Source: an uncultured Acidobacteriota bacterium (GTDB taxonomy: Bacteria > Acidobacteriota > UBA6911). Taken from it: a stretch of DNA of 64,000 bases. The notes beneath the pieces are model-generated. The model was not told the DNA's origin. It saw nothing but the letters and a program-made list of their open reading frames with translations, and did no database searches. The stretch lies in assembly GCA_964481255.1 (NCBI GenBank), contig CAYZTZ010000005.1:4922-68921 (forward strand), given 5' to 3'. The translations under genes and the position numbers were made by a program. Of this stretch, positions 40,973 through 63,425 are shown piece by piece; position 1 is the stretch's first letter; the number at the start of each line of letters is the position of its first letter.

Positions 40973-42808
40973 TCAATAACCCCATAAATCTTTGATGACT
41001 TCCTCAAGACCCAAGCTTGACAATGTGCTTCTATAAGGTTTCCCGGTTTTTGAGTCCCATCCCATAAGTCTATAATAATCATATATCATTGCTTTTATGG
41101 GTACGACCCTTCCCTTGGAACCCCCATCAGGAAGCGGCACCGCCGTATATTTATGCGGAAGGGTATCATCTTCCGGTCTCAGACCGTGTCGAATGTTGAA
41201 TCCCCGGCGCAGGTTAATGACCCTTCGAGCCGTCATCCTCGCTTCCTTTTCGTCAATTTGCAGCCCCGTCGCAGCGGCGAGGGTTTCAACTATCTTCGCC
41301 AACGGAACGCCGATGGTTCCAAAGGCACAGATTCCTAAAGTGTTAATAAAGCATCTCGCCTCCTGACCGCGTATCACAGCTTCTGCTTTCCCCGCGACTG
41401 AAAACCTAGGCAATTCTCCCGTTAGCTCAAGTCGAAGCGGGCCTCCTTCGTGGGCGGGACCGGCGCTTCCCACGGCATACTGCAACGCGTATCCCCAGGC
41501 ACTGCGATGATCATGCATGGGAAGAGGCATTCCTTTGACCTGCACCACAAGATCCTCCGCACCCTGCCCGATATATCGTGCCGCGAACAAAGGGCCCTCC
41601 GCCAAAACCCGGCCGATTCCTTCCCTTTTCGCGGTTCTTTCTATCAACTTCCATGCAACTTCGTAATTGCCAAAGGTTGCTTCCAGTCCCTCCACGTCCG
41701 CAGCCGAAATGAGGCCTTTCTCATAACACTCCATCAGAAGGGCTATCCCATTGCCCATCCCTAATCCATCAAGACCTAATCGATCCGCCAGTTCCGTCAG
41801 TCTAGCGACCACCGTTGGATCCGTGACCCCGATATTGCTTCCCATAGCGCTCATCAACTCGTATTCGGGTGATTCACACTCCCCCTCAAAGGCACCGTTT
41901 TTCAGATTTAGAAGCTTGCCATGACGGATCGTGCAACCAGGGCATGTGATATCCCGCTTGAACATACTTTCGACAACGTATTCACCGGTCAACTTTTCCC
42001 AACCCTTCAGCGTGCCATATCCCCAGTTCTTTATGGGCAGATCCCCCGCTGTATAGCACATTTGAACCAACGCAGCCGTGCCGAACTTACTGAAAGCTTG
42101 AGCCTCTAAATGCTGCATGTTTAACCTGCGCCACTCACGTGCAAGCTTCGCAAACGGACCCGGATGCGCAATGGGCACTGAGCGGTCGCCGCCGATCGCT
42201 ATCGCCTTCAGTCTCTTTGCTCCCATTACAGCCCCAAGCCCACCCCTGCCCGCTACATGGGAGCCATCGTTCACTATGGAGGAAATCATGACCCCATTTT
42301 CACCCGCCGGCCCGATACACAGGCAGCTCGTCCGGCTCTTGCCGGACTCTCGCCTCAAGATTTCCTGCGTTTCCACCGTGTCCCTTCCCCACAGTAACGA
42401 CGCATCAAGCAATTGGGCTTTGCCGTTGTCTATCACCAGGTTCACAGGCTCTTCCGAAGCCCCCTCAACCACGATGGCATCATAACCGGCAAATTTCAGC
42501 ATGCGCGCAAAATTGCCGTTCGAATGTGCATCATATACTGTAAAGCCCGTAACTGGGGATTTTGCCGCAACGGAGACATTACACGAGGCCTGGACCGACG
42601 TACCGGCCAGGGGGCCGGCGGATATCACAAGTTTGTTACCGGGTTCGAGAGCTCCGATACCGGGCGGAACTTCGTCGTAAAGGATTCTTGCCGCTATCCC
42701 ATCTCCCCCGATATATTTTTCAATATAGGAGCCATGCAGTTCTTCATCCTTCAGAGTCCCATCCGTCAGGTTCACACGCAAAAGTTTGCCCATAACACCT
42801 GAATACAT
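40973..42808 (-). CDS. Aldehyde:ferredoxin oxidoreductase family (tungstopterin) enzyme
   Basis: GKLLRVNLTDGTL N-terminus, SPEYELMSAMGSNIGV and LGICAFG blocks. Cluster motif reads CPGCTIRH. Strong RBS AAGGAGG upstream of ATG 42808. Confidence 0.9.
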   Translation of the reverse strand: MYSGVMGKLLRVNLTDGTLKDEELHGSYIEKYIGGDGIAARILYDEVPPGIGALEPGNKLVISAGPLAGTSVQASCNVSVAAKSPVTGFTVYDAHSNGNFARMLKFAGYDAIVVEGASEEPVNLVIDNGKAQLLDASLLWGRDTVETQEILRRESGKSRTSCLCIGPAGENGVMISSIVNDGSHVAGRGGLGAVMGAKRLKAIAIGGDRSVPIAHPGPFAKLAREWRRLNMQHLEAQAFSKFGTAALVQMCYTAGDLPIKNWGYGTLKGWEKLTGEYVVESMFKRDITCPGCTIRHGKLLNLKNGAFEGECESPEYELMSAMGSNIGVTDPTVVARLTELADRLGLDGLGMGNGIALLMECYEKGLISAADVEGLEATFGNYEVAWKLIERTAKREGIGRVLAEGPLFAARYIGQGAEDLVVQVKGMPLPMHDHRSAWGYALQYAVGSAGPAHEGGPLRLELTGELPRFSVAGKAEAVIRGQEARCFINTLGICAFGTIGVPLAKIVETLAAATGLQIDEKEARMTARRVINLRRGFNIRHGLRPEDDTLPHKYTAVPLPDGGSKGRVVPIKAMIYDYYRLMGWDSKTGKPYRSTLSSLGLEEVIKDLWGY

Positions 42809-43360
42809 CGTTGTTTCCTCCTTCATTCTTTCTGACACCGGAATTCCCCTCGGGCATGAAATCCGCCAAGGCCCGCGGACCCAACGGCTTCGTACCCCTC
42901 CACATGATCCTGCCTCTCCATATCACAGTCCTGGCCAAACCCTTGAACCGCCGGACCGAATAGATTCTGAAGCCGCCGGTGCACCGGTAGAGATCTTCTG
43001 TCACCGGAACCTACTTTTCCGGATCTAAAAGGCTGATATCTCAGGCCGGACAACCGCCGCTTCCATCGATTGCGGCGCTGGTCGATTACATTTGGGGCCG
43101 GGTAGCGGCCAATTTGCATTACAGTCAGAGATCCCTGGAAAAAGAGACGCCTCCGAAATGCGTAAAACCCGCGTCGCTGCGGTAAACAAGGACGCTTCTC
43201 GCTGCTTGTCGCATTTTGCCGCAATCGAATCAAAAGTCAGGTATCGGCGAAAACCATAAGGCTATGCGAATGGCATGTCCATACTGCGTTGTTGTCGAAA
43301 TGCGCCGGGATAAAGTCCCGTGAATGGCCGACAGCATATTGCCATCCCGCCATAGCGGCT

Positions 43361-44587: not shown

Positions 44588-44614
44588 GCGAATCCCTTCC
44601 TTTCACCAAAACAT

Positions 44615-45868
44615 CTAGATAGTTCCGGATTGCTGTAAGAGCTCCAGATCTCCTTTTGAAAAGCCGAGCTCCCCTTCATAAATGTCCCGGTTGTGCTCTC
44701 CCGGCAAAGGAGCTTTCCTCAACATCGTGAGCGGCGTTTCCGATAATTTTGCGAATGGGCCGGGATAGGTGATCCGTGCCTGAATTTCCGGATGATCAAC
44801 CTTGACCCAGAAGTCCCTGGCCTTTAATTGTGTGTTTTCAAAAATGTCTCGAGCTGTGGACACCGGGCAAAGCATGATCTTTCTTTCCAGGGCCTGGCTA
44901 TACAATTCAGCCTTTGTGTATCTCAAAAAAAGCTCCGCGATGGGGGCCTCCATTTGATCCTGCATTTCCTGGGTCTGACAGGACATGTCGAACACCGTCC
45001 AATCAAAATTTTCCATAAGCCCCGAAGCTAGACCCTCTTCCTGCAGCCACGCCGCCATGGCTCGATTGGTTTTAAGGCCGAAATCGCCGCCCAAAATATA
45101 AAAAATGACGTATCCATCCTTGCACCGCCATAACAGCTTCTGTTTTGTGTCCGTCCATCGGCCTGTGAGATAGGACCCCACGCGCCTGAGAATTTTATGA
45201 TTTAACTCCCACAGCGGAACTGCATTGGAGAGCTCCCATAGGACACACTCCTGCGCCGATACATCAACAAATTGCCCTTGCCCGGTCTTTTCACGATGGA
45301 AATAGGCGATAAGGCTCGCAGCGGCCGCATGGGCGCTGGCTAACATAAAGGACTGAGGAAAACTGATCCTCACGGGAGGCGCCTCCGGTCTTCCCGTGAT
45401 ATACAACAAGCCGCTCATAGCCATGACCACGAGGTCGGATGCTTTGAAGTTCCTGTAAGGTCCCGTTTGTCCAAACGGACTAATGGAGGTATAAATCATG
45501 CGCGGATTGAGCCCCTGGAGATCGGCGTACCCTAGTCCCAACGCATCCATATGTCCGGGAGGAAACGATTCAATGACAAAGTCGGCCTTGCTTGCCAGAG
45601 TTTTGAAAATTAGCCGTCCATCTCCGGAATCCAGATTTAAAGTAATCCCTCTTTTGCTCGCATTGTACGCGAACCATATAAGGCTTCTTTCCGGATCCGG
45701 GGTGTGACCATAGAAGGGACCGACACGCCTGTCCGGATCGCCTCCGGGCCTTTCGATTTTTATGACATCCGCTCCCAGGTCGGCCAGAATCCTGCCGCAC
45801 AGGTAGCCGTTCCCGTTCGTCAGATCCAGCACCCGCGGCGATCGAACCAGGCATTTCTTCTCTTCCAT
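44615..45868 (-). CDS. Family III CoA-transferase paralog (catalytic Asp position appears to be Ser)
   Basis: RVLDLTNGNGYLCGRILADLGADVIKIERPGGD, C-terminal PLPGEHN. The by-eye catalytic position reads PQSFMLAS. Confidence 0.8.
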   Translation of the reverse strand: MEEKKCLVRSPRVLDLTNGNGYLCGRILADLGADVIKIERPGGDPDRRVGPFYGHTPDPERSLIWFAYNASKRGITLNLDSGDGRLIFKTLASKADFVIESFPPGHMDALGLGYADLQGLNPRMIYTSISPFGQTGPYRNFKASDLVVMAMSGLLYITGRPEAPPVRISFPQSFMLASAHAAAASLIAYFHREKTGQGQFVDVSAQECVLWELSNAVPLWELNHKILRRVGSYLTGRWTDTKQKLLWRCKDGYVIFYILGGDFGLKTNRAMAAWLQEEGLASGLMENFDWTVFDMSCQTQEMQDQMEAPIAELFLRYTKAELYSQALERKIMLCPVSTARDIFENTQLKARDFWVKVDHPEIQARITYPGPFAKLSETPLTMLRKAPLPGEHNRDIYEGELGFSKGDLELLQQSGTI

Positions 45869-45872
45869 CCGC

Positions 45873-47057
45873 TCAATTTCCTTTACGGCCTAATCGTTTA
45901 TCCAGCGGGGAGGCATTATTCCGCCTGGATGGCAGAGCCACAATGGCATAGCCCGGCATTACGTTTTCCTGCCTTTGATTGATCGCAGATCGTTCGATAC
46001 GAACGCAGTAATCTCCATCTGCATCCATGTACTTGTCGGTAACCTTGCCCTTGACCCAAACGACGTCCGACAAATAGACGAACTTGTGGTACTCCGTATA
46101 ACTTCTCTTCAGCCAGCCGTCGTCTCCCATCCAATTCGTGATTAAATGAATACCCCAGCAGTGCCTTTGAACACCCACATCATAGGAATGTGGAAGTCCC
46201 ATTGCCTTTGCCGCCGCCCTGTTATAATGAACGGCAAAAATCGGTTCCAGCGCCGAGGTGTTGGGATCCCGGAAAGCCCAGGCCGGGTGTTTTCGATAGG
46301 ACCGCAAGGCCACGCCATGAGCCTGCAATCTCGGGATAGGAACCCCTCCGCCGATCACATAGGCTATCTCATCCGTGACTCCGAGCGGCCCTTTCACTAC
46401 CGGTTTCAGCTCATCTCCGATTTCAACGTCTTCCCAATACCGCGGCGTGGAACCTCGGACCTCCTCAGAAAGAATCTCCTGCTCAATCTGCCGCAATTGT
46501 TCCTCGGTCCAAGGATGCGGCAATTCAAGGTTGGCATACTTTTTTTTCTCGCGGGCCTTCGCTCTGGCGAAATGTACCACCCACCAATGATACCGGGCGA
46601 TCAGATCTCCGTGCTGGTTCCAATATTGATTTTGAAAATGGTCTATTACGGTCTCCTCAGCGTAGCTGCTTTTCTTTGGCCCGTCAAAGCTCTTGAATAC
46701 GCACTCTGCCGATATTTTATCCCCCATAAAAATCGGTTTCATGAATTCCACGTCGCAGCCGGCGTGAAATCCGCCCAGTCCCCTCCAGCCAAATATCACA
46801 TGAGAAAAACAGGCCCAGACGAACGAGGGGGGGGCGACAATACAGCCATACCGGCTCTTTTTTGCATATTCCGCATTACTCCACAGGGGATTCCAATCTC
46901 CTATTCCTTCGCTGAATTTTAGAATCGCCATTCTGGTCGCATACTCATTGTGCGTGCTTTCGTCCACGCGCAGTTTGAAGCCCAGTTTGGCGCGCATGTC
47001 CTCTATCATGTCTTGAGTGATTGTCGAATCGGGCATCACCACTTTTTTCTCGGGCAT
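45873..47057 (-). CDS. Double hot-dog (MaoC-like) acyl-CoA hydratase/dehydratase
   Basis: 394 aa, two hot-dog-sized halves. The N-terminal half (YATRMAILKFSEGIGDWNPLWSNAEYAKKSRYGCIVAPPSF) resembles the MaoC/FAS1-like dehydratase N-domain. Embedded between CoA-transferase genes with 4- and 49-nt gaps. Confidence 0.7.
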   Translation of the reverse strand: MPEKKVVMPDSTITQDMIEDMRAKLGFKLRVDESTHNEYATRMAILKFSEGIGDWNPLWSNAEYAKKSRYGCIVAPPSFVWACFSHVIFGWRGLGGFHAGCDVEFMKPIFMGDKISAECVFKSFDGPKKSSYAEETVIDHFQNQYWNQHGDLIARYHWWVVHFARAKAREKKKYANLELPHPWTEEQLRQIEQEILSEEVRGSTPRYWEDVEIGDELKPVVKGPLGVTDEIAYVIGGGVPIPRLQAHGVALRSYRKHPAWAFRDPNTSALEPIFAVHYNRAAAKAMGLPHSYDVGVQRHCWGIHLITNWMGDDGWLKRSYTEYHKFVYLSDVVWVKGKVTDKYMDADGDYCVRIERSAINQRQENVMPGYAIVALPSRRNNASPLDKRLGRKGN

Positions 47058-47106
47058 CCGTCACCTCTTTGGCTCGGTCGGACCGTTCCGGCCTTATGCC
47101 GCCGGG

Positions 47107-48465
47107 CTACCCCTCGCCAATTCCAATACCAAAGTGTTTTCTCAGTTCGGTGAGATAGTCCGGATCCATGGACCCTGCCTGTTGTTTTTCCAACAAATCA
47201 AGCCGCGTGGGCCTTCCGGGTGGAAAATCCGGAGTTCTGGAAATGACCTTATCCTTCTCCAGACGCACGAGCTCCTGCTTCGACATGCCCAACAATGAAC
47301 AAAAAACGTATTCGTTGTCCTCTCCGAAATGAGGAGCTCGCGTCAGGGCCAATTCCCTAAATCCTCGGAACTTTGCCGGCATCTGGCTGGGGATGGGCCT
47401 TGGACCGATGGCTTCTCCATGATCGATACACTGAAAGAAGCCTCGCTTCTTGAGGTGAGGATTCAGGTTGATTTCTTTCATGTTGAGCACGGCTCCGGCC
47501 GGGATCCTCAACCTCTGCAGGGTGTTCATTATTTCGAATTTGTCCCGGCGCATGGTCCATTGTTCCATCAGACAATCCAATTCAGGCTGTCGCGCAAGCC
47601 TGCCCTCCCTCGATGCGAACGCCCGGTCCCTTAACGCCTCAGGTTCATGGATCTCCCGGACAAAGCGCTTCCACTGGCCGTCGGTCTCTATAGCAATCGC
47701 CACCCACTCGTCGTCTCCCTTACAGCGATAACAGCCGTGAGGGGCGCATCCCGGATGCCGATTGCCCATGCGCCGGCGCTCGCGCTTATTCAGGATGCAA
47801 TCGAGAACTATGTCGCCCAGGTGGCAAAGAGTGGCTTCTCTTCCGGAAACATCCACGTACTGTCCCTTGCCGGTTATCTTCTGGTGGAATAGTGCGGTGA
47901 CCAGCGCCATGGCGGCATTGGCGCCTGTGACCCAGTCCCCGTAAGCGAAACCGGATAGAAGAGGCGGCTCATCCGGGTTGCCGGTGTTGTGCGTCAAACC
48001 GCTCATCCCCTCCATGCCCGGCACGTACATGTAGTAGTCCTTAAGCGGGCCGTCGTGTCCCAAGCCGCTCACCGAAACCATGATGATTCGAGGATTGATC
48101 TTCTTCAGGCGTTCGTAATTCAATCCCCAATGGGTCATTACCCTGGGCGAATAATTCTCGATGACCGCGTTGCTTATTCTTAAAAGCTGCCGGAAGATAT
48201 CGCGTCCCTTTTCGGTAGCCATATTGAGAGAGATGGCCCGTTTCCCTGCATTGAGGGAGTGAAACAGGCAGCCGCGATTCCAGGGATCGGCCCCCGGGTT
48301 GTTTTCGGGATAGACATTGGCTCGCGTAAATACATCCGGGCGTTGCCATGATTCTATCTTGAGAACCTCCGCTCCCAGTTCCGCCAATATCTTTGTGGCA
48401 ACGGGCCCGGCAAAAACCATGGTCAGATCGATAATTCTTATGCCGTCTAATATCTTGTATGCCAT
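47107..48465 (-). CDS. Family III CoA-transferase
   Basis: IRIIDLTMVFAGPVATKILAELGAEVLKIE, catalytic-position GDWVTG, C-terminal PHFGEDN. Confidence 0.85.
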   Translation of the reverse strand: MAYKILDGIRIIDLTMVFAGPVATKILAELGAEVLKIESWQRPDVFTRANVYPENNPGADPWNRGCLFHSLNAGKRAISLNMATEKGRDIFRQLLRISNAVIENYSPRVMTHWGLNYERLKKINPRIIMVSVSGLGHDGPLKDYYMYVPGMEGMSGLTHNTGNPDEPPLLSGFAYGDWVTGANAAMALVTALFHQKITGKGQYVDVSGREATLCHLGDIVLDCILNKRERRRMGNRHPGCAPHGCYRCKGDDEWVAIAIETDGQWKRFVREIHEPEALRDRAFASREGRLARQPELDCLMEQWTMRRDKFEIMNTLQRLRIPAGAVLNMKEINLNPHLKKRGFFQCIDHGEAIGPRPIPSQMPAKFRGFRELALTRAPHFGEDNEYVFCSLLGMSKQELVRLEKDKVISRTPDFPPGRPTRLDLLEKQQAGSMDPDYLTELRKHFGIGIGEG

Positions 48466-48480: not shown

Positions 48481-49686
48481 TTATAGGATACCGGCACTCC
48501 GCAATCTCTCGATATCTTTTTGGGTGTACCCCAATCCTCGATAGATCTCACGGTTGTGTTCTCCCAGCAAAGGGGCTCGTCCGGAAAGCCATGGCGTCCT
48601 GCATAGTCTGGCAGGCGGGCCCGGGCTGGTGAATTCACCTAAACGTGGATGACGGATCGTGTCGAAGAACTTCCTGGCTCTCAATTGCGGGTCCTCTAAG
48701 AGTTCATGGACGCTCAAAACGGGAGTAAAAGCGAGCCGCAATTGCTGGGCTTCCGCCGTAATGTCCCATTTGTTGCGACTTATCAGCCACGGAATGACCA
48801 GGGCATCAAATCCTTCAGGATCGGCCATGCGGGTTCTTGGGTCGGTAAAAAACTCGCTGTCCTGTAATTCAGGTTTGTTGATCAGAAAAGGAATATTCGG
48901 CGCCCCTCCGATCCCGGGGGTGAGGCTGATCCAGCCATCCTTGCAGGGAACGCTGTAGCCGACGGGGTAACCGTGGATGGCAAACGGATTGGTCCGTCTG
49001 CTGAATCCCAGGTATGAATATTCCGTAATATGTCCCATGAGGGTGCTGGCGACACACTCCATCATTCCCACATCGATCGAAACGATATCCGGATTATTCG
49101 CTCGGCCCAGAAGCGCCGCCACCGTTGCTATATAGCTCAGCAGCCCCGTCGAGAATTCCGCCTGCACCCCCCCCAGCACGGAAGGTCTTGTTTTGGGTTT
49201 AGTCCCGGGTCTCATCGGATAGATCGCCCCGCCGAGGGCCGATACGGTGAGATTATTCGCGCGATAGCGGCGGTACGGCCCGGTTTTGCCAAAGGCTGAA
49301 ATTGAAGTCACAAGGATGCGGGGATTGATCTTCCGCAGTTTCTTCCTGGATAAACCCAATCTTCGGAGCCCTCCGGGGGCATAGCTTTCCACAAGGATAT
49401 CCGCGGTTTTCAGAATCCGCTTTGCTATTTCAATCCCCCTTTTGCTGTTGAGGTTTAAGGTAATGCTCTTCTTATTGGTGTTCAGATAGTGGAAAGTACC
49501 GCTCTTCTCGAGGTCATACTGATCATTGGGGAATGGTCCTATTTTCCGGGTGATATCCCCTTTGTTCGGTCTTTCAACTTTAATGACTTCGGCGCCGAAA
49601 GAACCGAACAGTTTTGTGCAATAGGGGCCTGCAATCCCCTGAGTCAGGTCCAGTATTCGCACCCCGCTGAATACCCGTTCGCCCAT
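48481..49686 (-). CDS. Family III CoA-transferase paralog (Glu at the catalytic Asp position)
   Basis: VRILDLTQGIAGPYCTKLFGSFGAEVIKVERP, catalytic-position QAEFSTG, C-terminal PLLGEHN. ATG 49686 (MGERVF) is preferred over the 23-aa longer track ORF. Confidence 0.8.
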   Translation of the reverse strand: MGERVFSGVRILDLTQGIAGPYCTKLFGSFGAEVIKVERPNKGDITRKIGPFPNDQYDLEKSGTFHYLNTNKKSITLNLNSKRGIEIAKRILKTADILVESYAPGGLRRLGLSRKKLRKINPRILVTSISAFGKTGPYRRYRANNLTVSALGGAIYPMRPGTKPKTRPSVLGGVQAEFSTGLLSYIATVAALLGRANNPDIVSIDVGMMECVASTLMGHITEYSYLGFSRRTNPFAIHGYPVGYSVPCKDGWISLTPGIGGAPNIPFLINKPELQDSEFFTDPRTRMADPEGFDALVIPWLISRNKWDITAEAQQLRLAFTPVLSVHELLEDPQLRARKFFDTIRHPRLGEFTSPGPPARLCRTPWLSGRAPLLGEHNREIYRGLGYTQKDIERLRSAGIL

Positions 49687-50345
49687 AAAATCACGCCCTT
49701 CTGCCAACGTGCGATGGATGCGTATCCCAAGACGCACACGTCCATGAGGACTCAAAACAAGTTTCCTGCACTTTGCTTGATCTCATGTTGCACACCGTTG
49801 ATATTTGACGATATTATTCCGCCGACAGAATCTGTTTCCAGTTTGCCGGCAATTGGATCCGTTGGCTGACCGGGAGCCCCTGCTGCGATTTCGGCCGGAG
49901 TCGCCGAGAGCGCAATCCAATACGCCCTTCCGCTCCTATTCCCTCCTTGAGCGGGGCAAAACAATATTATCATTGCAGGCAAAGCGTCGGACGCTCCAAT
50001 TCCACAACGGAAGGAGCTTATTGACGGATCGCTAACAGGCAACAGAAATTGCTTTATCTCCACAAAAATGATGCACCTAAACGCAGTTGCACATGAATTT
50101 ATTTGTAACATGGCGAAGCTTGTTTTAAAATGAAAAAAGAAGAACTGACCATCAGGCAAAGCAGGTCTTAGTTCTGGGAACCATTATGTTTATTGCTGCC
50201 AGGTTTCCCTCAAATGGTTGGGCTGTCTTGCCGTCCCCAATAGAAGGATTCGAAATGACAGCCGCGGATGAAGGTCAAAGCAAAACGCCGGAGGAGCGAG
50301 GCTTAAGGAATACTTGGGTTCCATAGAGCGTGGAGGGCGGAACAG

Positions 50346-51398
50346 ATGGCGGAATTTTCCAAGGATGAAGCCAAGGCCTGGGCAAAAAAGAACTTGAAAG
50401 GACTGGAAGCAGTAATTTTCCCGTCCTTTACACCGGATTTGAAAGAACTCGACGAAGAGGGTATTCGATATGATGTCAATCACCTCATTGCCAACGGTTT
50501 TACGTCCGTATTGGCAGCGCCGGAAGTTTGCGGAATGACCTTTGAAGAGCGAAAAAGGCTTGTCGAAATAGTATGCGACGAAGCAAAGGGTAAAATGCAC
50601 ACGTCGGTCGCTGTGATGCAGGATACCGTCGAGGAAGATATCGAGATGCTGCAGCATCTCGAAAAAGTCGGAGGAACTTTCGCCCTGCTCGGCCATCCGG
50701 TACAGTACCATCCCTGGTCGGTCGAGGATATTTTCCGGATGTATAAACACATGTGCGATTCGACAAATATCGCGATAGTGTTTTACGCCGGTCGACTCCA
50801 CACCAGGAAATTTCATCCGAGCTATTTTCCTCCGCAGCTCCTGCCACGTATAGCTGATATCCCTAACGTCGTGGCTATGAAAGTCGGCGGAGGGAGTTCG
50901 ATGGCCATTACGGTGATGTCTTTTCGTCTGTGCGGCGATAAAATCCTGGTCAACGACCCGACGCCTGAGAGGTGGTTTGTTACCGTGCCCCAATACGGTC
51001 AGCAATGGGCAGGCGCCGGCCCTTATTACGGAATGCAAACTCCCGAAAGACCGCGTATGGTCCATATGTTTAATCTGCTGGTGAAGGGTGAAATAGATAA
51101 AGCAATGGATATTTACTGGGAGGCGGCTCCTCCGGCAGAAGGCGGAGAAGGGCCGGCCGACTCCTATTTTCATACGGGCATTGTTACCGCTCTGAGCGAT
51201 AAATATTCACACTGGTGCAACGGGGGCAACGGCGGTACCGTCAGGCAACCTACAGGCCGGCTCCACGACTACCAGAAAGAGAGAATAAGGGCGGGGCTGA
51301 GAGCGCTGGGATTCACTCCTCGCGAACCCGAAGAAGAATTTTACGTCGGCAGGGTTAACTACGCCAAGGGAGCCAGATTGAAAAAATACAGTTCATAG
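50346..51398 (+). CDS. Divergent DHDPS/NAL-family (class I aldolase-like) protein, paralog 1
   Basis: TIM-barrel-sized (350 aa). Lys context IPNVVAMKV matches the DapA Schiff-base lysine strand. The GTTGE loop is replaced by PEVCGMT. RBS GGAGGG upstream. Confidence 0.7.
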   Translation: MAEFSKDEAKAWAKKNLKGLEAVIFPSFTPDLKELDEEGIRYDVNHLIANGFTSVLAAPEVCGMTFEERKRLVEIVCDEAKGKMHTSVAVMQDTVEEDIEMLQHLEKVGGTFALLGHPVQYHPWSVEDIFRMYKHMCDSTNIAIVFYAGRLHTRKFHPSYFPPQLLPRIADIPNVVAMKVGGGSSMAITVMSFRLCGDKILVNDPTPERWFVTVPQYGQQWAGAGPYYGMQTPERPRMVHMFNLLVKGEIDKAMDIYWEAAPPAEGGEGPADSYFHTGIVTALSDKYSHWCNGGNGGTVRQPTGRLHDYQKERIRAGLRALGFTPREPEEEFYVGRVNYAKGARLKKYSS

Positions 51399-51481
51399 CG
51401 GCAGATTGAATGAACGTATACCATATATATATATGCGGGACACCCGCCTCTATCCCGCACTATAAAGGAAGGGAGTTAACA

Positions 51482-55162: not shown

Positions 55163-56092
55163 TTGACGAATCCATCGGCTTCCTCTGCAAAGAAACGATC
55201 TGTCCTTAGCATTGCCCGGATGACAGTTCATAACGGACCCGGAATACGAACCTTGATACTTCTGAAAGGCTGTCCCTTACGCTGCATCTGGTGTTCCACG
55301 CCTGAATCCTGGGAGGAGTCCCCGGAAATCGCCTTCCACCCGGATAAGTGTATCCTATGTAACGACTGTCTTCCGGTTTGTCCGAAGAATGCGATAACAA
55401 CCGGCGATAAAGCGGTGGTCCTAGACAGGGAGTTATGCGATAAATGCGGAAGGTGTGCCGATGTATGCCATACGGAAGCCCTGAGACTCCTGGGACGGCA
55501 ATATACAGCAGACGAATTGGTCTACGAGGTGAAGAAGGACGAAATTATCTATAAACATTCCGGAGGCGGCGTAACCGTTTCGGGAGGAGAGCCCCTGCTT
55601 GAACCGGAGTTTGCCGCGGAATTGCTCCGCGCTCTTAAACAGAACGGAATGAATACCGGAGCGGATACCTGCGGTTTTGTCCCCCGGAAAAATATCGAGG
55701 CCGTCCTCCCCTATGTCGACTTTTTTCTCTGGGATATCAAGCACATGGATGAGGATACCCACCGCAAACTAACCGGAGTATCCAACCGTCTCATCCTGGA
55801 CAACCTGCTTTTTGTCTCGGGTAATAATATACCCGTCTATCTGAGAATACCGGTGATACCCGGCTGCAATGATTCGGAGGAAAACCTGAGGGCCGTCTGT
55901 GATTTCGCCGCAGACCTGCCCTCGCTGGTTGAGATAAACATCCTGCCGTTGCACCACCTGGGCAAGGCAAGATATGTCGCTCTGGGCCTCGAATACCCCA
56001 TAGACGATATTCCTCTAGTTAAGGATGGTGTTCTCACGGAGATGCAACGCCTGGTGGAATCATTCGGCTTAAAGTGCAGCATAATCGGCTAA
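55163..56092 (+). CDS. Glycyl-radical enzyme activating protein
   Basis: HNGPGIRTLILLKGCPLRCIWCSTPES (Cx3Cx2C), CILCNDCLPVCP, CDKCGRCADVCH, GGVTVSGGEPL. TTG start at 55163 is uncertain. Confidence 0.9.
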   Translation: MTNPSASSAKKRSVLSIARMTVHNGPGIRTLILLKGCPLRCIWCSTPESWEESPEIAFHPDKCILCNDCLPVCPKNAITTGDKAVVLDRELCDKCGRCADVCHTEALRLLGRQYTADELVYEVKKDEIIYKHSGGGVTVSGGEPLLEPEFAAELLRALKQNGMNTGADTCGFVPRKNIEAVLPYVDFFLWDIKHMDEDTHRKLTGVSNRLILDNLLFVSGNNIPVYLRIPVIPGCNDSEENLRAVCDFAADLPSLVEINILPLHHLGKARYVALGLEYPIDDIPLVKDGVLTEMQRLVESFGLKCSIIG

Positions 56093-56341: not shown

Positions 56342-56370
56342 AGAATAAAGTGAAAGAAAGGAGGGAAATC

Positions 56371-58209
56371 ATGCGACGTTTTAAAACGGCGTTAATCTGT
56401 TTATGTGCTCTGGTGATCGCGTTGGCCGCAAGCGTGGTGATCCAGGGAAATATAAAGAACACCATGACAAGCGAAAAAGTAACAGTGCTGAACCCTAGAG
56501 GCATACCTCCTCCAATAGAAATGATACCCATGGCCCCCCGGCTCGATACCCTGGAGGGCAAAACAATATACGTCGCAGGTATAAATTTCCAACCGTTGCA
56601 TCAAGGCATGATAGAAATCCACAGAATACTCACCGAAAAATATCCCAAAACCACATTTATACTCAAGGTCAAAAAAGGCTCTTACTTAGTTAATGACCAG
56701 GAGCTGTGGGATGAAATCAAAGAAAAAGGCGACGCAGCGATAGTCGGCATCGGGCAACTGGATACCAATGCGCCGGCGACCGTCATCTTCTCCTCCATAC
56801 TGGAAAAAATGGGGATACCCACGGCGCCTGTTGTCACCGCGGGGTTTCCGAATCTCACGAGAAGCTTCGCCTACAAGAAGGGAATGCCTGAACTGCGATT
56901 GACTTTTATTCCCCATCCTTTCACGGCCAGGCCAGTCGAAGTACAACGGGAATATATAAGGGGTAAAGATCCGATAAGCGGCAAACCAATCATTGAACAA
57001 ATCGTTGAGGCCCTTACCAAACCGCTGACTGATAAAGAACGAAAGACAGGTACCATAGAAAGACCGATACAAAGAGTGCTGGGACCTGATACTCCCGAGA
57101 AACTGGCCAAGCTCTTTCTTGAAAAAGGATGGACCGATGGTCTTCCGATAATTCTTCCTACGGAAGAAAGAGTCGCCGAAATGCTCAAGGGAACAGGCCA
57201 CAAGCCGGATGAGGTCATCGGCACGATGCAGCCCACTCCTCCTAACGAGGCATGGGAAGGCTCTCTAAGGCAACTTGGCAGTAGTCAGGCGAAAGGAGGA
57301 CCTGAATTACCGGTAACTATGCAGCCCTCCCCTCCCTATGAGTCCTGGGAATATACTGTAAAGCACGTCGCTATCAATGCCGTGATGGCGGGAGCCGGTA
57401 AAGAGCATTTCCCTGTAATACTTGCTATAGCATCCACAGGAGTAACCTCATTATTCAGTTCCTGTTCCTCTTTCGCCAGAATGGTTGTCGCCAACGGGCC
57501 AATTCGCAAAGAGATAAACATGAATTCCGGACTGGCCGCGTTGGGCCCCTTCAATCATGCCAATTCCGTCATCGGCAGGGCGTGGACGTTGATATCCAAG
57601 AATCTGGGAGGCTCGATACCGGGCGAAACATATCTGGGGGATCTGGGCAATGCCCTCAACTACAACAATTTGTGTTTTGCGGAGAATGAAGAGTCTCTGC
57701 CTAAAGGATGGAATCCTCTGCATGTGCAAAAGGGCTATAAAGCAAAAGAAAGCGTAGTTAGCATATTCAGCGGATGGAGCTTGATTAATTATGGTGCTTT
57801 TAAGCCGTACCCGATTCACGAGGTCATCAGGAAATTGTTGATAAGCTTTGAAACCAGCGGCCCCGGCAGTTGCAGGCCGACTCTGTTATTAAGCCCGGTA
57901 ACGGCCGAAGATCTTAGGAATGAAGGCTTCGAAAGCAAGGAGAAGTTGAGCCATTGGCTCAAGGAAAACACCTATATGAGCCTCTGGAACTATTGGGCAA
58001 CGAGGCCTGAGGACCTGGCGTCTGCAAAAGCAGGGCGCGAGCCATTCGCGTCTATGCTGAAGCAGCCTCCCGGGGCGGACTCACCACAAAAGGCTATGAT
58101 GCCCTTCACCCAGGCTGAGATTCTGGTTGTGGGTGGGGGAACCGAGGTCTCCTGGCAGGCCGGAGATTTCGGGTACGTGGTATCAGCATCAGTGGATAAG
58201 TGGAGGTAG
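56371..58209 (+). CDS. Exported ~610-aa protein of unrecognised family, paralog P1
   Basis: RBS AAAGGAGGG plus ATG 56371. Signal/anchor MRRFKTALICLCALVIALAAS. Blocks shared with P2: VLNP, PRL..L..K.I, GW.DGLP...PT, A(I/V)NAVMAGA, FPVI.A, NGPI/SGPI, AEN(E/D)E. Confidence 0.6.
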   Translation: MRRFKTALICLCALVIALAASVVIQGNIKNTMTSEKVTVLNPRGIPPPIEMIPMAPRLDTLEGKTIYVAGINFQPLHQGMIEIHRILTEKYPKTTFILKVKKGSYLVNDQELWDEIKEKGDAAIVGIGQLDTNAPATVIFSSILEKMGIPTAPVVTAGFPNLTRSFAYKKGMPELRLTFIPHPFTARPVEVQREYIRGKDPISGKPIIEQIVEALTKPLTDKERKTGTIERPIQRVLGPDTPEKLAKLFLEKGWTDGLPIILPTEERVAEMLKGTGHKPDEVIGTMQPTPPNEAWEGSLRQLGSSQAKGGPELPVTMQPSPPYESWEYTVKHVAINAVMAGAGKEHFPVILAIASTGVTSLFSSCSSFARMVVANGPIRKEINMNSGLAALGPFNHANSVIGRAWTLISKNLGGSIPGETYLGDLGNALNYNNLCFAENEESLPKGWNPLHVQKGYKAKESVVSIFSGWSLINYGAFKPYPIHEVIRKLLISFETSGPGSCRPTLLLSPVTAEDLRNEGFESKEKLSHWLKENTYMSLWNYWATRPEDLASAKAGREPFASMLKQPPGADSPQKAMMPFTQAEILVVGGGTEVSWQAGDFGYVVSASVDKWR

Positions 58210-58431: not shown

Positions 58432-59670
58432 ATGTCTGAAGAAAAGAAAATAACGGCAATAACCAACGGCTTATTAATCGATGGTACGGGCGCCGACCCT
58501 GTTAAGAACGCGACAGTCCTTATCGAGGGATCGATAATCAAGAAAGTGGGAAAGCGTCAAGATATTCCCAGGGGTGCGACAGTCCTGGATGTTTCCGGGA
58601 AGACGGTGATGCCGGGGCTGATAAACGCGCATATGCACCTGGCGGGAGGCAGTTCCGGGATCGGACCGTCTCCGTACCGCCCCAGAGAAGTCGCAATGTT
58701 CAAAGCGGCGGATGATGCCAAGAATATGCTGGCCTCGGGATACACGACCGTGAAGGACTGCGCCGGGAGAAACGCCCCTTTCCTGAAGCAGGCCGTCAAA
58801 GAGGGCGTCCTGACAGGGCTTCCTCGCATCGTGGCTGCCTGTTGTGTATTGAGCCAGACAGGTGGTCCGCAGGATCAAGCATCCAAAGCTGGGAAATCTC
58901 GGGATGCACGGGAGAATGATGAAGCAGAGTTTCTCATTTGTGATGGCGTGGACGAGTGTATTAAGGCGGCTCGCTACTCTCTGCGGTTGGGTGCGGACTT
59001 CATTAAGGTCTTTGCCAGCATGAGTTTCTGGAATGCGGATCACGATTCTCCAAGCGGTGTCACATTCAGTATGGATGAGATGGAGGCTTTTGTGAAGACA
59101 GCCGCCCAGGTTGGCAAATTCGTTACGGTTCATTCTCAGAATCGCCATAGTTCGAAGATTGCCATACTTGCCGGGGTAAAGACCATAGACCACGCCAGCG
59201 GCTCGGATGACGAAGTCGTGTCGTTGGGGAAGGCGCACGGTGCGATTTTCGTATCGACTCTCGCATATCTCAGGGTGATGCTTGATGGAAAACTGGCCTC
59301 TCAAGCCTCCGCAATGATACAAAAGGAGTGGGATGCTTCCGTTGAGGCATACAGGAAAATGCACGATGCAGGAGCTGTCCTGGCCGCCGGCACGGATAGC
59401 TTCGGAGATGCAAGAGAAGGTGCGATGGAAATTGAATTGTTGAAGAAATATTGCGGTTTCACCCCGATGGAAGCCATTGTAGCAGCGACCAAACACGGCG
59501 CCGAAGCTTGTTTTATGGGTGATAAAACGGGGACGATAGAAGCAGGTAAGTACGCCGATATTATCGTTGTCGATGGCAACCCGCTGGCGGACATAAAGAT
59601 ACTGCAGGATGTCAATAAGATTAAAATAGTGATGTTGGAAGGCGACATCTGTGTCCATCGAGGGCTTTAG
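58432..59670 (+). CDS. Amidohydrolase-superfamily metal-dependent hydrolase
   Basis: ITNGLLIDGTG...VLIEGSIIKKVG...VMPGLINAHMHL (HxH), HSQN, DHAS and GTDS blocks. RBS AAAGGAGAAG. Confidence 0.8.
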   Translation: MSEEKKITAITNGLLIDGTGADPVKNATVLIEGSIIKKVGKRQDIPRGATVLDVSGKTVMPGLINAHMHLAGGSSGIGPSPYRPREVAMFKAADDAKNMLASGYTTVKDCAGRNAPFLKQAVKEGVLTGLPRIVAACCVLSQTGGPQDQASKAGKSRDARENDEAEFLICDGVDECIKAARYSLRLGADFIKVFASMSFWNADHDSPSGVTFSMDEMEAFVKTAAQVGKFVTVHSQNRHSSKIAILAGVKTIDHASGSDDEVVSLGKAHGAIFVSTLAYLRVMLDGKLASQASAMIQKEWDASVEAYRKMHDAGAVLAAGTDSFGDAREGAMEIELLKKYCGFTPMEAIVAATKHGAEACFMGDKTGTIEAGKYADIIVVDGNPLADIKILQDVNKIKIVMLEGDICVHRGL

Positions 59671-59887
59671 CCCTAAAAACGAGAAAAACCAACATCATAG
59701 AGAATGAGCCTGCCGAGATCATCCAGGTCGGGCGAGAGGCTCTCGACAGCACGCCTGATTTTTGAAGATCTGAGATGTGCCGATATTCGAAGAGCTGGAT
59801 CTTGGGAGGATGATAAAGACACTCCGGGACAGTGGAAGACCAGGCACTGTATGAAAGGAATATATCCATCCATGGGAGGAACCACAG

Positions 59888-60967
59888 ATGAAAAATCTAA
59901 GGTTAAACAATATGCAAAAACTGCTGATATTCATCAGCTATATCCTAATTGTTTGCGGGAGCGCCGCTATCGCCGATGATCGTCCGGACTCGGGGGGCAT
60001 TAAATATCTTCACGGTCCCCGGAATGCCGAGGATATCCAACCGCTTGGTGATTCTCAATGGTTGGTTACCTCCGGCTTGAACGGTCAGGCTTCAAAAACC
60101 GATGATAACGGCCATATCTACCTGGTCCATCGCAAAGAGAAGACATTCGAAGAATTATTTCCGGGGGCAACGCCAAAATTTGATCATGATAAGGCATTGT
60201 TCAATGCCTGCCCAGGCCCGATAAACCCTAACAAGTTTTCCGCCCATGGACTGGCCGTGCAGCAACGGTCCTCAGGGCTGTATCGCCTGTACGTCGTCAA
60301 TCATGGAGAAAGGGAAGCCATAGAAGTATTTAATATCGACGCTCAAGGAACAAAGCCGGCGATCACTTGGGCGGGTTGTGTATTATTACCCAGAGAAGTC
60401 ATGGCGAACGGTGTCGCGATCCTGCCAGATGGCGGCTTTTTGACAACCAATTATTTCGATCCGACTGTGCCGAATTCCATAAGAGATCTCATCCAGGGCA
60501 AGATCAGCGGTGCCGTTTATGAATGGCATCCCGGCGGAAATGTAAAAGGCATACACGGTACCGAGCTATCAGGTCCAAACGGGATCGCGTTATCGCCGGA
60601 TAATGAATGGGTCTATGTGACGGCCTTTGGCACACGCGAGATAGCCCGGTTTAACCTTACAAAAAGCCCCATTACAATGGAGAGAGTTAAAATCGACATC
60701 ATGCCTGATAACATCCGTTGGGGTGATGATGGCATGCTTTACGTCGCGGGCAATAACTATGTGCCGCCGGAGCAATGCCCAAAACCACCATGTCGGACCG
60801 GATGGTCCGTTTATAGTGTCCATCCCCGAACCCTGGAATTGAAACGAGTCACCGGTGTTGATCAAACGGCAGCTCTGCAGAATGGCACGACGGCACTTGT
60901 CGTGGGCCATGAGATATGGGTCGGAACCTACTCGGGTGATAGGATTTGTTATTTGCCGAAGCCTTAA
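59888..60967 (+). CDS. Exported SMP-30/gluconolactonase/arylesterase-like beta-propeller protein
   Basis: Signal peptide (MQKLLIFISYILIVCGSAAIA). NGIALSPDNEWVYVTAFGTREIARFNL and PDNIRWGDDGMLYVAG are typical six-blade propeller repeats. Confidence 0.7.
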   Translation: MKNLRLNNMQKLLIFISYILIVCGSAAIADDRPDSGGIKYLHGPRNAEDIQPLGDSQWLVTSGLNGQASKTDDNGHIYLVHRKEKTFEELFPGATPKFDHDKALFNACPGPINPNKFSAHGLAVQQRSSGLYRLYVVNHGEREAIEVFNIDAQGTKPAITWAGCVLLPREVMANGVAILPDGGFLTTNYFDPTVPNSIRDLIQGKISGAVYEWHPGGNVKGIHGTELSGPNGIALSPDNEWVYVTAFGTREIARFNLTKSPITMERVKIDIMPDNIRWGDDGMLYVAGNNYVPPEQCPKPPCRTGWSVYSVHPRTLELKRVTGVDQTAALQNGTTALVVGHEIWVGTYSGDRICYLPKP

Positions 60968-61017
60968 ACTTCCTGAATCATGCGGATTAAAGGCAGTTCA
61001 CTATAATGGGAGGCCTT

Positions 61018-61356
61018 ATGAGCCTTAACACATCGAGGAGGACATTTCTAAAGGCTGCGGGTGCGGGAGTATTGCTGCCTGCCGCCGGACGTGCTTCAAC
61101 AACAGGCCCTAAAGCCGCATTTCAACCGCATACAGATGTTGTCAAGAACACTTTAGGCAAAACAGGCCCGAAGGTTTGCGGAATAGCCTGCGGAATCGGG
61201 TTCGTGCCTCTGACGGAAGAGGTTTCCCGCGCATTGGATATGGGGATTAATTATTTCGATACGTCACCGGATTGCGGTGACTGCGAAAAGATCCTTTCAG
61301 ACATTACAAGAAGCCGGAACCGGATGTGCGCCCCGTATTACATGATATATTCTTGA
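61018..61356 (+). pseudogene. Truncated Tat-signal aldo/keto reductase (N-terminal ~100 aa only)
   Basis: SRRTFLKAAGAG twin-arginine signal, then LGKTGPKVCGIACGIG...ALDMGINYFDTSPDCGDCEKIL (AKR N-terminal block LGKTG..VS..G.G / GIN.FDTA..YG). Stops after ~112 aa and is followed by 250 nt of non-coding DNA. Confidence 0.5.
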
Positions 61357-61604
61357 AGTTATAGTGTATTTCATTACCTGGAACGACGTAGATGCGTGCA
61401 GGAGACCAATGTCTATTCTCTCCATAAAGGCAGGCACGTGGCACGAAGCCGCCATAATACGTGCTTCGGGAATGAGTCCATGGCATTATGTGGGAAGTCT
61501 ATCCCCAAACGGGGTTGAGAGTCCAGAGATAGAGTCTAGGTACTATAAAGCCGCCACAGCAAAAAACCGTTCTCAATCTTCAGGCTATATAGAAGGAGGA
61601 AGAA

Positions 61605-63425
61605 ATGGGAAAGTTTAATGCAGTTGGGTTAAGATCATTAATAGGTTTTTTTGTCTGCCCTATAATCCTGGTGCATGCAAATACTTTTACTGCCGAGCCT
61701 GCACGGAAGGCAGAAGGTGTTTCGTTTGAAGTGCTTAATCCTGAGACCGAGATGATTATGCCATCTGAAATCTCACTGATTTCTCCGCGGCTTAAGGACC
61801 TGTCGCAGAAGAAGATCGGATTGCTCTACGCCGGCAAATCGGGTGGAGAGTTTTTTCTGGATGCGTTAGAGGTGCTTCTGAAGAAGAAATATCCTTCGAT
61901 CACCATCACCAGATATACCCGGTGGGTGGATAATGCAGAGGAGAGGATAGTGAAGGAAGAAGATGCCTTTGTTTATGCGGTGGGAGATGCCGGCCAGGCG
62001 GCCTGGGACAGCATAACCTGGACGGTAAAACTGGAAAAGCGCGGTAAACCCGGTGTCGCTGTTTTTGGCGACCGCGTGTTATATAACGCAAAAGTGGCCG
62101 CTACCCGTCTCGGCATGCCGTCGGTACGTATGGTGCCGCTGCCCAGCATGGAATTCTACCCGAACAGGGCAAGCGCAAAGAGCATGATACCTTGTGCCGA
62201 AATGGTTCTGGACGATATCATAAATGCGTTGACCCGCCCGATACAGCCTTCAGAGAAAAATGCCGTTTTGATACCGAAAAAGATGATGCCGGATTTTGTC
62301 AGAATTACAGGCGACAGCCTGGAATCCGCCTATGAGAAATTCTACCAGCTATTCATGGATTATGGCTGGGGCGACGGACTACCATTGGTCCCTCCCACAC
62401 GCCATAATGTCGAACAGATGCTAAAGGCAACCAGCCTTCCGCCTGATACGATCCTGGGTACAATACAAGTGCATGACGGGAGTTGCGACCTGGTGAATGT
62501 CACTGTGAAGAAGGTTGCTGTCAATGCTGTGATGGCCGGCGCCAAACCGGAATATTTCCCGGTTATTATCGCCGCCATGAAAGGGATATCCGATAAGGGA
62601 TTTTCCAGTCACGTGTTTTCTTCAGACGCCTCCTTTAACCTTTTGATAGCCGTGTCCGGTCCCATTGCGAAAAAAATCGGTATGCACTCCGGAACAGGTC
62701 TGTTGGGGCACGGATGGCGGGCCAACAATACCATTGGACGCGCTGTGAGGCTGTGCATGAACAATATCGGCAATTTGAAACCGGCAAAGCTGGATACGGC
62801 ATTAACCGGCAGGGCGTCATCCCATACTTTTTATGTGCTGGCTGAAAATGATGAATTAAGTCCCTGGGCTCCTTACCACACGGTTCATGGTTACCGGGCG
62901 GAAGACAGTTGTGTTACGGTGTCCGGTATAGGTTTGGGCGGCGATTTCACGGATTACGGCGGCGGAACCGGAGCCGCCTGGACAGTTGAGAGCGTTCTGG
63001 AAAGAATCGTTAAAAGAATAGCTTCCAACCGCAATATGTTTGCGGGAGCCGGTGTCAGGCCTCTCAACTATATTTTCGTATTGAGTCCCGATACGGCACA
63101 GGAACTGAAAAAACGGGGCTTTTCCAGGCAGAGCCTCCAGGATTACATTATCGACAAAACATCCGTACCCTATGAGGAGCTGAGCAAAGCTGAGATAGAA
63201 GGGCTTAAAAAGAAACTTTCGGAAAGGTCCGAAGCCTGGGGAGGAACCGGTAATATTCCTGAAGACCGCATCCCTGTGTTCTGGGAAAACCTTAAACCCG
63301 GAGGCAAAATACCTATTATCGTTTCACCGGACAACCTTAACATTTTTGTGTCGGGTGATGTGTCAGGCTATAATTTTGGAGCGGTTTATCTGCTCGGGGG
63401 CCACTCGATTAAACCCGTTCAATAA
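61605..63425 (+). CDS. Exported ~606-aa protein of unrecognised family, paralog P2
   Basis: RBS GAAGGAGGAAG plus ATG. Signal peptide MGKFNAVGLRSLIGFFVCPIILVHA. Collinear with P1 (GWGDGLPLVPPT, AVNAVMAGAKPEYFPVIIAA, SGPIAKKIGMHSG, LAENDE). Confidence 0.6.
   Translation: MGKFNAVGLRSLIGFFVCPIILVHANTFTAEPARKAEGVSFEVLNPETEMIMPSEISLISPRLKDLSQKKIGLLYAGKSGGEFFLDALEVLLKKKYPSITITRYTRWVDNAEERIVKEEDAFVYAVGDAGQAAWDSITWTVKLEKRGKPGVAVFGDRVLYNAKVAATRLGMPSVRMVPLPSMEFYPNRASAKSMIPCAEMVLDDIINALTRPIQPSEKNAVLIPKKMMPDFVRITGDSLESAYEKFYQLFMDYGWGDGLPLVPPTRHNVEQMLKATSLPPDTILGTIQVHDGSCDLVNVTVKKVAVNAVMAGAKPEYFPVIIAAMKGISDKGFSSHVFSSDASFNLLIAVSGPIAKKIGMHSGTGLLGHGWRANNTIGRAVRLCMNNIGNLKPAKLDTALTGRASSHTFYVLAENDELSPWAPYHTVHGYRAEDSCVTVSGIGLGGDFTDYGGGTGAAWTVESVLERIVKRIASNRNMFAGAGVRPLNYIFVLSPDTAQELKKRGFSRQSLQDYIIDKTSVPYEELSKAEIEGLKKKLSERSEAWGGTGNIPEDRIPVFWENLKPGGKIPIIVSPDNLNIFVSGDVSGYNFGAVYLLGGHSIKPVQ

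Follow-up and report, generated by a model that had tools for sequence, protein, structure and literature searches.

A candidate anaerobic catabolic gene cluster around a serinyl radical enzyme in an uncultured Acidobacteriota bacterium

We analyzed a stretch of 64,000 nucleotides, referred to here as the window, from an uncultured Acidobacteriota bacterium (assembly GCA_964481255.1, contig CAYZTZ010000005.1, positions 4,922–68,921), in which two gene sets diverge from an intergenic region. One of them encodes a relative of the glycyl radical enzymes (GREs) that has serine in place of the radical glycine and that we refer to as the serinyl radical enzyme (SRE). The genes of this locus had been listed in an initial annotation made from the sequence alone, and each of them is a long open reading frame (ORF) with a family match. 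In window coordinates, the locus comprises the following features:

40973–42838, minus strand: aldehyde:ferredoxin oxidoreductase (AOR), tungsten-type, 621 aa; Pfam AFOR_N 236 bits and AFOR_C 361 bits
43361–44587, minus strand: CoAT_a, family III CoA-transferase subunit; Pfam CoA_transf_3
44615–45868, minus strand: CoAT_b, family III CoA-transferase subunit; Pfam CoA_transf_3
45873–47057, minus strand: double hot-dog (R)-hydratase of the MaoC/FAS1-DH type, 394 aa; Pfam FAS1_DH_region and MaoC
47107–48465, minus strand: CoAT_c, family III CoA-transferase subunit; Pfam CoA_transf_3
48481–49755, minus strand: CoAT_d, family III CoA-transferase subunit; Pfam CoA_transf_3
49756–50345: divergent intergenic region between the two gene sets, approximately 590 bp; no ORF with a family match
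50346–51398, plus strand: DHDPS-like protein 1, 350 aa; Pfam DHDPS 33.6 bits (cut-off 22.1)
51482–52510, plus strand: DHDPS-like protein 2, 342 aa with the Met at 51482 as start (ORF beginning at 51410); Pfam DHDPS 61 bits
52628–55129, plus strand: SRE, 833 aa; Pfam PFL-like (PF02901) 527 bits and Gly_radical (PF01228) 80 bits
55163–56092, plus strand: SRE-activating radical SAM enzyme, 309 aa; TIGR02494 337 bits
56326–58209 (database start 56371), plus strand: P1; Pfam UGSC (PF24696) at the N-terminus
58432–59670, plus strand: Amidohydro_1 metallohydrolase; Pfam and NCBIfam matches
59888–60967, plus strand: SGL/strictosidine-synthase-like propeller with a signal peptide; Pfam SGL 34.7 bits
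61605–63425, plus strand: P2, a paralog of P1; Pfam UGSC, with a signal peptide in the window lineage

The four CoA_transf_3 genes form two adjacent pairs with the MaoC gene between them; the true start of CoAT_d is probably an internal Met near 49686, and its Pfam match begins at residue 30. Neither a tRNA nor a riboswitch or other RNA family was found when the window was scanned for tRNAs and with Rfam, and promoter and repeat scans of the divergent region gave weak promoter-like matches only, with nothing above background.

The radical fingerprint of the SRE, LLVRVASYVAYF, reads RVASY instead of RVxGY, with Ser808 (codon AGC, 55049–55051) replacing the radical glycine; in ungapped alignments to PflD, IslA, IseG, HpsG, and others, Ser808 falls on the radical Gly of RVAGY. 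The enzyme and its neighbor had been annotated as a GRE with its activase. The pair is indeed present, but with Ser808 at the position where the strict pattern (RVxG[FWY]) has Gly, the enzyme is not a GRE in the strict sense. RVAS[YF] was found in all 114 scorable sequences among the best 120 database homologs (54–100% identity), and Ser occupies the radical site in both of the closest 50%-identity clusters, in every one of the approximately 100 loci fetched for comparison that have a readable C-terminus, and in every homolog checked, down to 47% identity. Only AGC and AGT are used as its codon (51 distinct loci and, separately, 20 loci). Because the serine recurs across homologs, clusters, and fetched loci with these codons, Ser808 is neither an error nor a private mutation. 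Moreover, an alignment of 39 homologs (47–86% identity) revealed that Ser808 and Cys469 (54032–54034) are invariant and that Glu471 is nearly so.

Enzymes with Ala, Ser, or Thr at the radical site have been described as aminoacyl radical enzymes (AAREs) (Fu et al. 2024, JACS, PMC11528403), and we therefore rejected the idea that the Gly-to-Ser replacement is an unreported new cofactor. Judged by its sequence, the window enzyme is an SRE of the AARE class. In the SRE of Dethiosulfatibacter aminovorans (DaSRE), the partner activase yields a stable Cα serinyl radical with a four-line electron paramagnetic resonance (EPR) signal, only the wild type or a Ser-to-Gly variant is activatable, and thiyl radical formation is viable in SREs; SREs encode the radical Ser by AGY codons only, the SRE clade lies next to that of the threonyl radical enzymes, and AAREs are closest to GRE eliminases (PMC11528403). 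The window enzyme shares with DaSRE the GRE fold, the AGY-encoded Ser at the RVx[G]Y position, and the conserved catalytic Cys, and an adjacent dedicated radical SAM activase is found in both. Our neighbor-joining tree of 147 sequences, from which DaSRE was left out, places the Ser and Thr sequences in an exclusive clade, so that the SRE clade lies next to the Thr clade in both trees.

The discovery paper listed 21 SREs whose genomic contexts were varied, with the activase as almost the sole common neighbor, and whose functions were not known; CoA-transferases, aldolases, and DHDPS are unmentioned in its main text and supplement (PMC11528403). According to a review of June 2026, function had been assigned to no AARE (PMC13450708). 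The initial annotation had not recognized the gene set as any characterized GRE pathway, which still holds for the pathway; the enzyme class, in contrast, was published in 2024. What is new here is the conserved neighborhood, the activase signature, and the environmental breadth, whereas the enzyme class itself is already known. SRE relatives are encoded in more than 470 metagenome stretches, compared with the 21 SREs of the discovery paper, and unlike the varied contexts of the published SREs, this far larger environmental clade has a conserved multigene neighborhood. Table S2 of that paper includes SREs of Dehalococcoidia isolate W403 and Deltaproteobacteria isolate Zod_Metabat.1351 (PMC11528403); metagenome-assembled genomes (MAGs) with these isolate names gave loci L017 (83% identity to the window SRE) and L018 (58%), a match at the level of isolate names.

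Several relatives with other residues at the radical site were also seen. Thr-type enzymes form a sizeable family, with RV[AS]T[YW] in 41 of the 120 best hits of P0276 (loci L022/L023 and L105/L106), and an AOR gene lies 7 kb from the Thr-type enzyme in L105. Two clusters of Thr-clade relatives (P0461 and P0509) read RVGAY, in which Gly immediately precedes the canonical site and Ala occupies it, and clusters P0245, P0292, and P0478 are of the Ala type (RVAAY).

The SRE activase has an intact CX3CX2C motif (CPLRCIWC), a GGE motif, and two ferredoxin-like cluster motifs. It is distinguished by the signature HN-GPGIR and WC-ST-PES, corresponding to Asp16→Asn and Asn38→Thr in the numbering of the PFL activating enzyme (PFL-AE), with positions matched by spacing; in the window activase the two residues are Asn24 and Thr46. 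The canonical activase of the same window (33976–34896), which is the partner of a Gly-type GRE, reads HD-GPGIR and WC-QN-PES. We find the Asn and Ser-Thr signature in 53 of 58 activases adjoining Ser-type enzymes, and the activase of DaSRE, as given in the supplement of PMC11528403, carries the signature of the window activase (KNGPGLR and CIWC-STPES). Activases of Thr-type relatives keep the Asp and read WCC[S/N/D]PE, that is, with an extra Cys after the cluster motif, and those of a Gly-type sister and of the published Ala-type enzyme are canonical. In a simulation study, Asp16 and Asn38 of PFL-AE are the anchors that hydrogen-bond Gly734, and an L-alanine at the Gly734 site of PFL directs its H-alpha away from the 5'-deoxyadenosyl radical (PMC9326890). 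The Asp16→Asn/Asn38→Thr signature thus offers a testable explanation of L-serine recognition as well as a simple sequence marker for SRE activases.

The same simulations bear on whether Ser808 carries a Cα radical at all, as the canonical PFL-AE geometry turns the side chain of an L-residue, and not its H-alpha, toward the 5'-deoxyadenosyl radical (PMC9326890). This would suit a nonradical pseudo-enzyme, or a serine that is converted to formylglycine, to dehydroalanine, or, after loss of its side chain, to a glycyl radical. We consider such outcomes very improbable, given that the EPR signal of DaSRE is that of a Cα serinyl radical, that activation of DaSRE is restricted to the wild type and the Ser-to-Gly variant (PMC11528403), and that Cys469, Glu471, and the cluster motifs of the activase are conserved. 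The specific candidate of an attack by the activase on the Ser side chain, leading to formylglycine or through formaldehyde loss to a glycyl radical, was set aside on the strength of the published EPR data (PMC11528403).

By analogy with DaSRE, a radical-storing Ser808 would be activated by the neighboring activase (55163–56092), which would abstract the Cα hydrogen of Ser808 to give a stable serinyl radical; this radical would pass to Cys469, and the resulting thiyl radical would abstract a hydrogen from the substrate. Cys469 and Glu471 form a GCxE loop and align to C489 and E491 of CutC, and the predicted fold of the SRE matches GRE eliminases with Foldseek TM-scores of 0.83–0.85 at 29–32% identity. 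With the GRE 1,2-eliminases and dehydratases (CutC, glycerol and propanediol dehydratases, HypD, N-methyl-hydroxyproline dehydratases, and IslA) the enzyme shares the ten-stranded barrel, the Cys-x-Glu loop, and the remainder of the radical fingerprint downstream of Ser808. It differs from them in the Ser at the radical site, in the low identity, and in the residues that bind choline in CutC: in the alignment to 5faw (D. alaskensis numbering), D216 is replaced by Ser, Y208 by His, F395 by Ser, and T502 by Met. The SRE falls below every NCBIfam equivalog cut-off, reaching 486 bits against the CutC profile TIGR04394 (cut-off 1050), and its bit scores are 360–443 against eliminases, 304 against MasD, and 270 against TutD. 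The earlier view that the radical enzyme is not orthologous to a characterized GRE is thus borne out by the missed cut-offs, by the low identity to solved eliminases, and by the absence of the CutC residues. Because of the GCxE loop and the closest folds, the most likely reaction would be a 1,2-elimination or dehydration of the GRE-eliminase type, with Glu471 as the base, acting on a hydroxylated carboxylic acid or a derivative of one.

Besides Cys469, four cysteines of the SRE (C174, C278, C502, and C505, at approximately 53147, 53459, 54131, and 54140) are invariant across the SRE family and include a CxxC (NGKCAVCGK) that aligns to non-Cys residues of CutC; this CxxC may be a family-specific metal or disulfide site.

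To describe the gene neighborhood, the ORFs of the fetched loci were scanned with the window proteins, and occurrences were counted in the 25 nonredundant loci with flanks of 5 kb or more to either side of the SRE gene. These fall into a close subclade (at least 78% identity, mostly Dehalococcoidales, n = 10) and a distant subclade (54–60% identity, n = 15). Near the SRE gene, an activase is encoded in 23 of the 25 loci (close 10/10, distant 13/15), a MaoC double hot-dog hydratase in 21 (9/10 and 12/15), family III CoA-transferases in 19 (8/10 and 11/15), DHDPS-like proteins in 17 (10/10 and 7/15), and UGSC-type proteins in 12 (6/10 and 6/15). An AOR is encoded in 8/25, all of them in a single subclade (close 0/10, distant 8/15). 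The order CoAT_d-CoAT_c-MaoC-CoAT_b-CoAT_a with a nearby AOR gene is also found in L048 and L058, and P1-type and P2-type genes are paired in many loci (L053, L060, L061, L069, L074, L099, and L111). Because the set recurs around SRE homologs in independent genomes and metagenomes, its genes did not come together by chance. The control loci, taken from Thr-, Ala-, and Gly-type relatives and representing four distinct places in five fetched loci (L022, L024, L105, L107, and L108/L109), contain no DHDPS-like, UGSC, MaoC, or CoA-transferase genes. Conserved colocalization had been proposed as a check on the functional linkage of these genes, and we find that the SRE, the activase, the DHDPS-like pair, P1/P2, and the CoA-transferase/hydratase set are kept together across lineages, with the AOR confined to one subclade.

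Relatives of the locus also have recurrent neighbors that are absent from the window, namely a DUF6282 gene directly after the activase gene, a MarR gene upstream, a type-B carboxylesterase, a URO-D-like protein, and MmgE/PrpD pairs. Conversely, the amidohydrolase and the propeller were found, among the loci scanned, only in the window and in L014, the closest locus (93% identity), which is binned as Acidobacteriota, whereas most relatives are in Dehalococcoidales MAGs. The amidohydrolase and lactonase-like propeller named in the initial annotation are thus present but are not part of the conserved set; together with the export signals of P1 and P2 described below, they are additions specific to the window lineage.

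The cluster of the window is a mosaic. Its SRE is closest to the Dehalococcoidales versions, and its CoA-transferases, MaoC hydratase, and AOR are closest to those encoded beside the distant (54–60% identity) SREs: against the latter, the window MaoC scores 730 bits and the CoA-transferases score 560–700 bits, compared with approximately 190 bits for the Dehalococcoidales-type MaoC. Furthermore, GC content in the window (1–64000) drops from 0.57–0.65 to 0.49–0.54 at approximately 38–40 kb and stays at this level across the entire cluster. The mosaic and the GC shift suggest that modules were acquired and reshuffled, and modules that move independently could also mean that two unrelated operons stand back to back, the SRE/DHDPS/P1 set and the CoA-transferase/hydratase/AOR set serving different pathways and having become neighbors through assembly of a genomic island. 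We regard this as quite unlikely: MaoC and CoA-transferase genes lie beside the SRE gene in most of the 25 loci, in both subclades and in differing arrangements, and they occur in none of the control loci.

The best PDB match of CoAT_a is 9fn0_B, chain B of benzylsuccinate CoA-transferase (277 bits versus 164 for the next match), that of CoAT_b is 9fn0_A, chain A of the same enzyme (246 bits versus 139), and that of CoAT_c is again 9fn0_B (201 bits). CoAT_a and CoAT_b are thus two distinct CoA_transf_3 subunits, each nearest to one Bbs subunit, as in enzymes of the BbsEF type. The matches of the CoA-transferases to the NCBIfam model for succinyl-CoA:mesaconate CoA-transferase are weak (approximately 180 bits versus a cut-off of 700). 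The hydratase has weak PDB matches only, to MaoC and ChsH1/2, and the AOR aligns to the P. furiosus AOR (1aor) over residues 14–613 with 388 bits. The two heteromeric CoA-transferases, the hydratase, and the AOR that had been noted previously were accordingly found as four CoA_transf_3 genes, a MaoC protein, and an AFOR_N/AFOR_C protein. Between the AOR and CoAT_a genes, 520 bp (42839–43360) contain no credible gene; the corresponding gap is approximately 20 bp in L053 and L061.

As in the anaerobic toluene pathway, to which BbsEF (PDB 9fn0) belongs, two different family III subunits are encoded side by side, in a cluster that includes a gene for a GRE-superfamily radical enzyme. The window differs in that it lacks the remainder of the Bbs beta-oxidation set, has a hydratase of the MaoC type, and encodes a second transferase pair. 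A second comparison is with the itaconate/mesaconate CoA-transferase modules (Ict/Ich, and Mct/Mch of the 3-hydroxypropionate bi-cycle and the methylaspartate cycle), in which a family III CoA-transferase and a MaoC-type hydratase act on unsaturated dicarboxylates. The window resembles these modules in that a family III CoA-transferase gene adjoins a double hot-dog hydratase gene, with MmgE/PrpD pairs in related loci, and differs from them in scoring far below the family cut-offs and in having no citramalyl- or malyl-CoA lyase. The BbsEF-like transferases would point to substituted succinates or related dicarboxylates as substrates, with succinyl-CoA as the likely donor.

This similarity raises the question of whether the SRE could act like an X-succinate synthase, adding a C–H substrate to fumarate, with the BbsEF-like transferases activating the substituted succinate for a shortened Bbs-type oxidation. 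Consistent with such a route, CoAT_a and CoAT_b have the two benzylsuccinate CoA-transferase subunits as their clear best matches, the hydratase gene lies between the transferase pairs, and an acyl-CoA dehydrogenase is encoded near some relatives (L002). The SRE itself, however, scores higher against eliminases than against TutD and MasD and retains the Cys-x-Glu loop that is typical of eliminases and decarboxylases, the window has no homologs of BbsG, BbsCD, or BbsAB, and the hydratase is of the MaoC type and not of the crotonase type like BbsH. In addition, no small subunits like BssB/C are annotated among the called genes of the loci, in which no dedicated search for them was made. We consider fumarate addition, the main alternative, unlikely, since the SRE is closer to eliminases and keeps Cys-x-Glu and since the other members of the Bbs set are missing.

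The two class-I-aldolase-like proteins of the initial annotation are paralogs of the DHDPS family, 52% identical to each other, with Pfam scores that are low though above the cut-off. Protein 1 keeps the putative Schiff-base Lys179 and Tyr147, and protein 2, aligned to 2yxg, retains the Lys and has Trp in place of the catalytic Tyr. The same division is seen among homologs: the Schiff-base Lys is present in 30 of 33, Tyr is found in type 1 and Trp in type 2, and the GTTGE motif is replaced.

P1 and P2, which share 30% identity, match the Pfam model UGSC over their N-terminal ~155 residues with 64 and 56 bits (cut-off 25), and this domain remains below the NCBIfam cut-off (46 versus 125 bits). 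It contains no Cys (residues 54–207 of P1), so the U/C-G-S-C redox motif of the family is absent. The UGSC literature describes only a predicted selenoprotein family. Whereas UGSC family proteins are ~150 aa long, P1 and P2 have a length of ~600 aa owing to an extra C-terminal domain of ~400 aa. This domain had no relative in a PDB profile search, and the AlphaFold2 (AF2) model of P1 (pLDDT 81) had no structural match in the PDB (best TM-score 0.17). The N-terminal hydrophobic helix of P1 and the signal peptide of P2 are found in the window lineage only; homologs of other lineages start directly at the conserved domain, and because they have no signal peptide, we regard the export signals as lineage-specific. 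P1 and P2 had been described as exported paralogs of an unknown family, and they are indeed paralogs and carry export signals in this lineage, but their N-terminus matches UGSC and the signals are not general. By the same token, the extracytoplasmic first step that had been proposed for the pathway has no general support. The reaction order put forward with it, from ring opening through aldolase and GRE to the AOR and then CoA activation, is likewise a hypothesis. An internal repeat in P1, TMQPTPPNEAWE ... TMQPSPPYESWE (57190–57330, residues ~290–335), has a low-confidence linker between its copies and is missing from P2; the consensus of P1-type homologs shows the same repeated motif.

Taken together, these observations lead us to propose, with a probability of roughly 60%, that the genes of the locus form an anaerobic catabolic cluster centered on the SRE, with Ser808 as the radical-storage residue. 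In this proposal, the unsaturated or carbonyl products of the SRE would enter a module of CoA transfer, hydration, and CoA transfer; an aldehyde intermediate would be oxidized by the AOR; and the DHDPS-like pair would catalyze an aldol-type cleavage or a dehydration. Taken as a group, the conserved partners suggest that the compound degraded may be of the same type as succinate, itaconate, or citramalate, namely a substituted dicarboxylic or hydroxy acid, and that part of its processing would take place on a CoA ester.

A more comprehensive reading, which we hold tentatively and at somewhat less than even odds, is that the conserved set (the SRE, the activase, the DHDPS-like pair, the UGSC-domain pair, BbsEF-like CoA-transferases, MaoC, and AOR, joined in most relatives by DUF6282, the URO-D-like protein, and the carboxylesterase) would constitute the first recognizable AARE pathway, in which a substituted dicarboxylic or hydroxy acid would be processed anaerobically by an undescribed route, widely distributed among Dehalococcoidales and other anaerobes of sediment, aquifer, and peat. 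It would include at least one new fold, that of the C-terminal domain of P1/P2, and the Asn/Thr pair of the activase would be the determinant for L-serine.

Several points weigh against the proposed catabolic cluster. The reaction and the substrate that we assign to the SRE are purely inferred, and the BbsEF-like transferases fit a fumarate-addition pathway equally well. The AF2 model of the radical domain of the SRE (residues 694–833) is of low confidence, with pLDDT mostly below 50. In the distant subclade, DHDPS-like and UGSC-type genes accompany fewer than half of the SRE genes, and in the peat/bog subclade and L003 (L003, L064, L072, L085, and L088–L098) no activase or partner genes were found in the available flanks of up to 10 kb. 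Finally, database searches returned 5964 P1-type matches (E value of 1e-10 or less) and 531 SRE matches (E value of 1e-50 or less), and because the P1-type family has far more matches, P1 and P2 are probably not dedicated to the SRE. As a separate observation, some SRE genes of the peat/bog subclade adjoin only a major facilitator superfamily transporter gene or an AOR gene.

AAREs changed the earlier notion that a radical cofactor of the protein backbone has to reside on glycine, and the window together with approximately 100 related loci demonstrates that the serine class is abundant in environmental anaerobes. The discovery paper had no common genomic context from which to predict functions. 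The conserved neighborhood described here is a useful lead to the function of SREs and makes the question of AARE function more approachable; the defined partner set limits the search to carboxylic acids that are processed in the form of CoA esters and aldehydes and gives concrete proteins with which to pursue it.

Two further features of the window lie outside the conserved set. Between the propeller and P2 genes, on the plus strand at 61006–61618, a 116-aa ORF that carries a Tat signal and over a short distance resembles the beginning of an aldo/keto reductase is followed by an 84-aa ORF without a family match, and these ORFs may be the remnant of a disrupted exported oxidoreductase gene. 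Approximately 15 kb upstream of the SRE pair, the gene of the canonical activase mentioned above (33976–34896) is followed by that of its 814-aa GRE partner (34893–37337, plus strand), which has a canonical RVAGY with a GGA codon and falls below every NCBIfam equivalog cut-off; this second pair is flanked by serS (32371–33648) and galU (31214–32188, minus strand).

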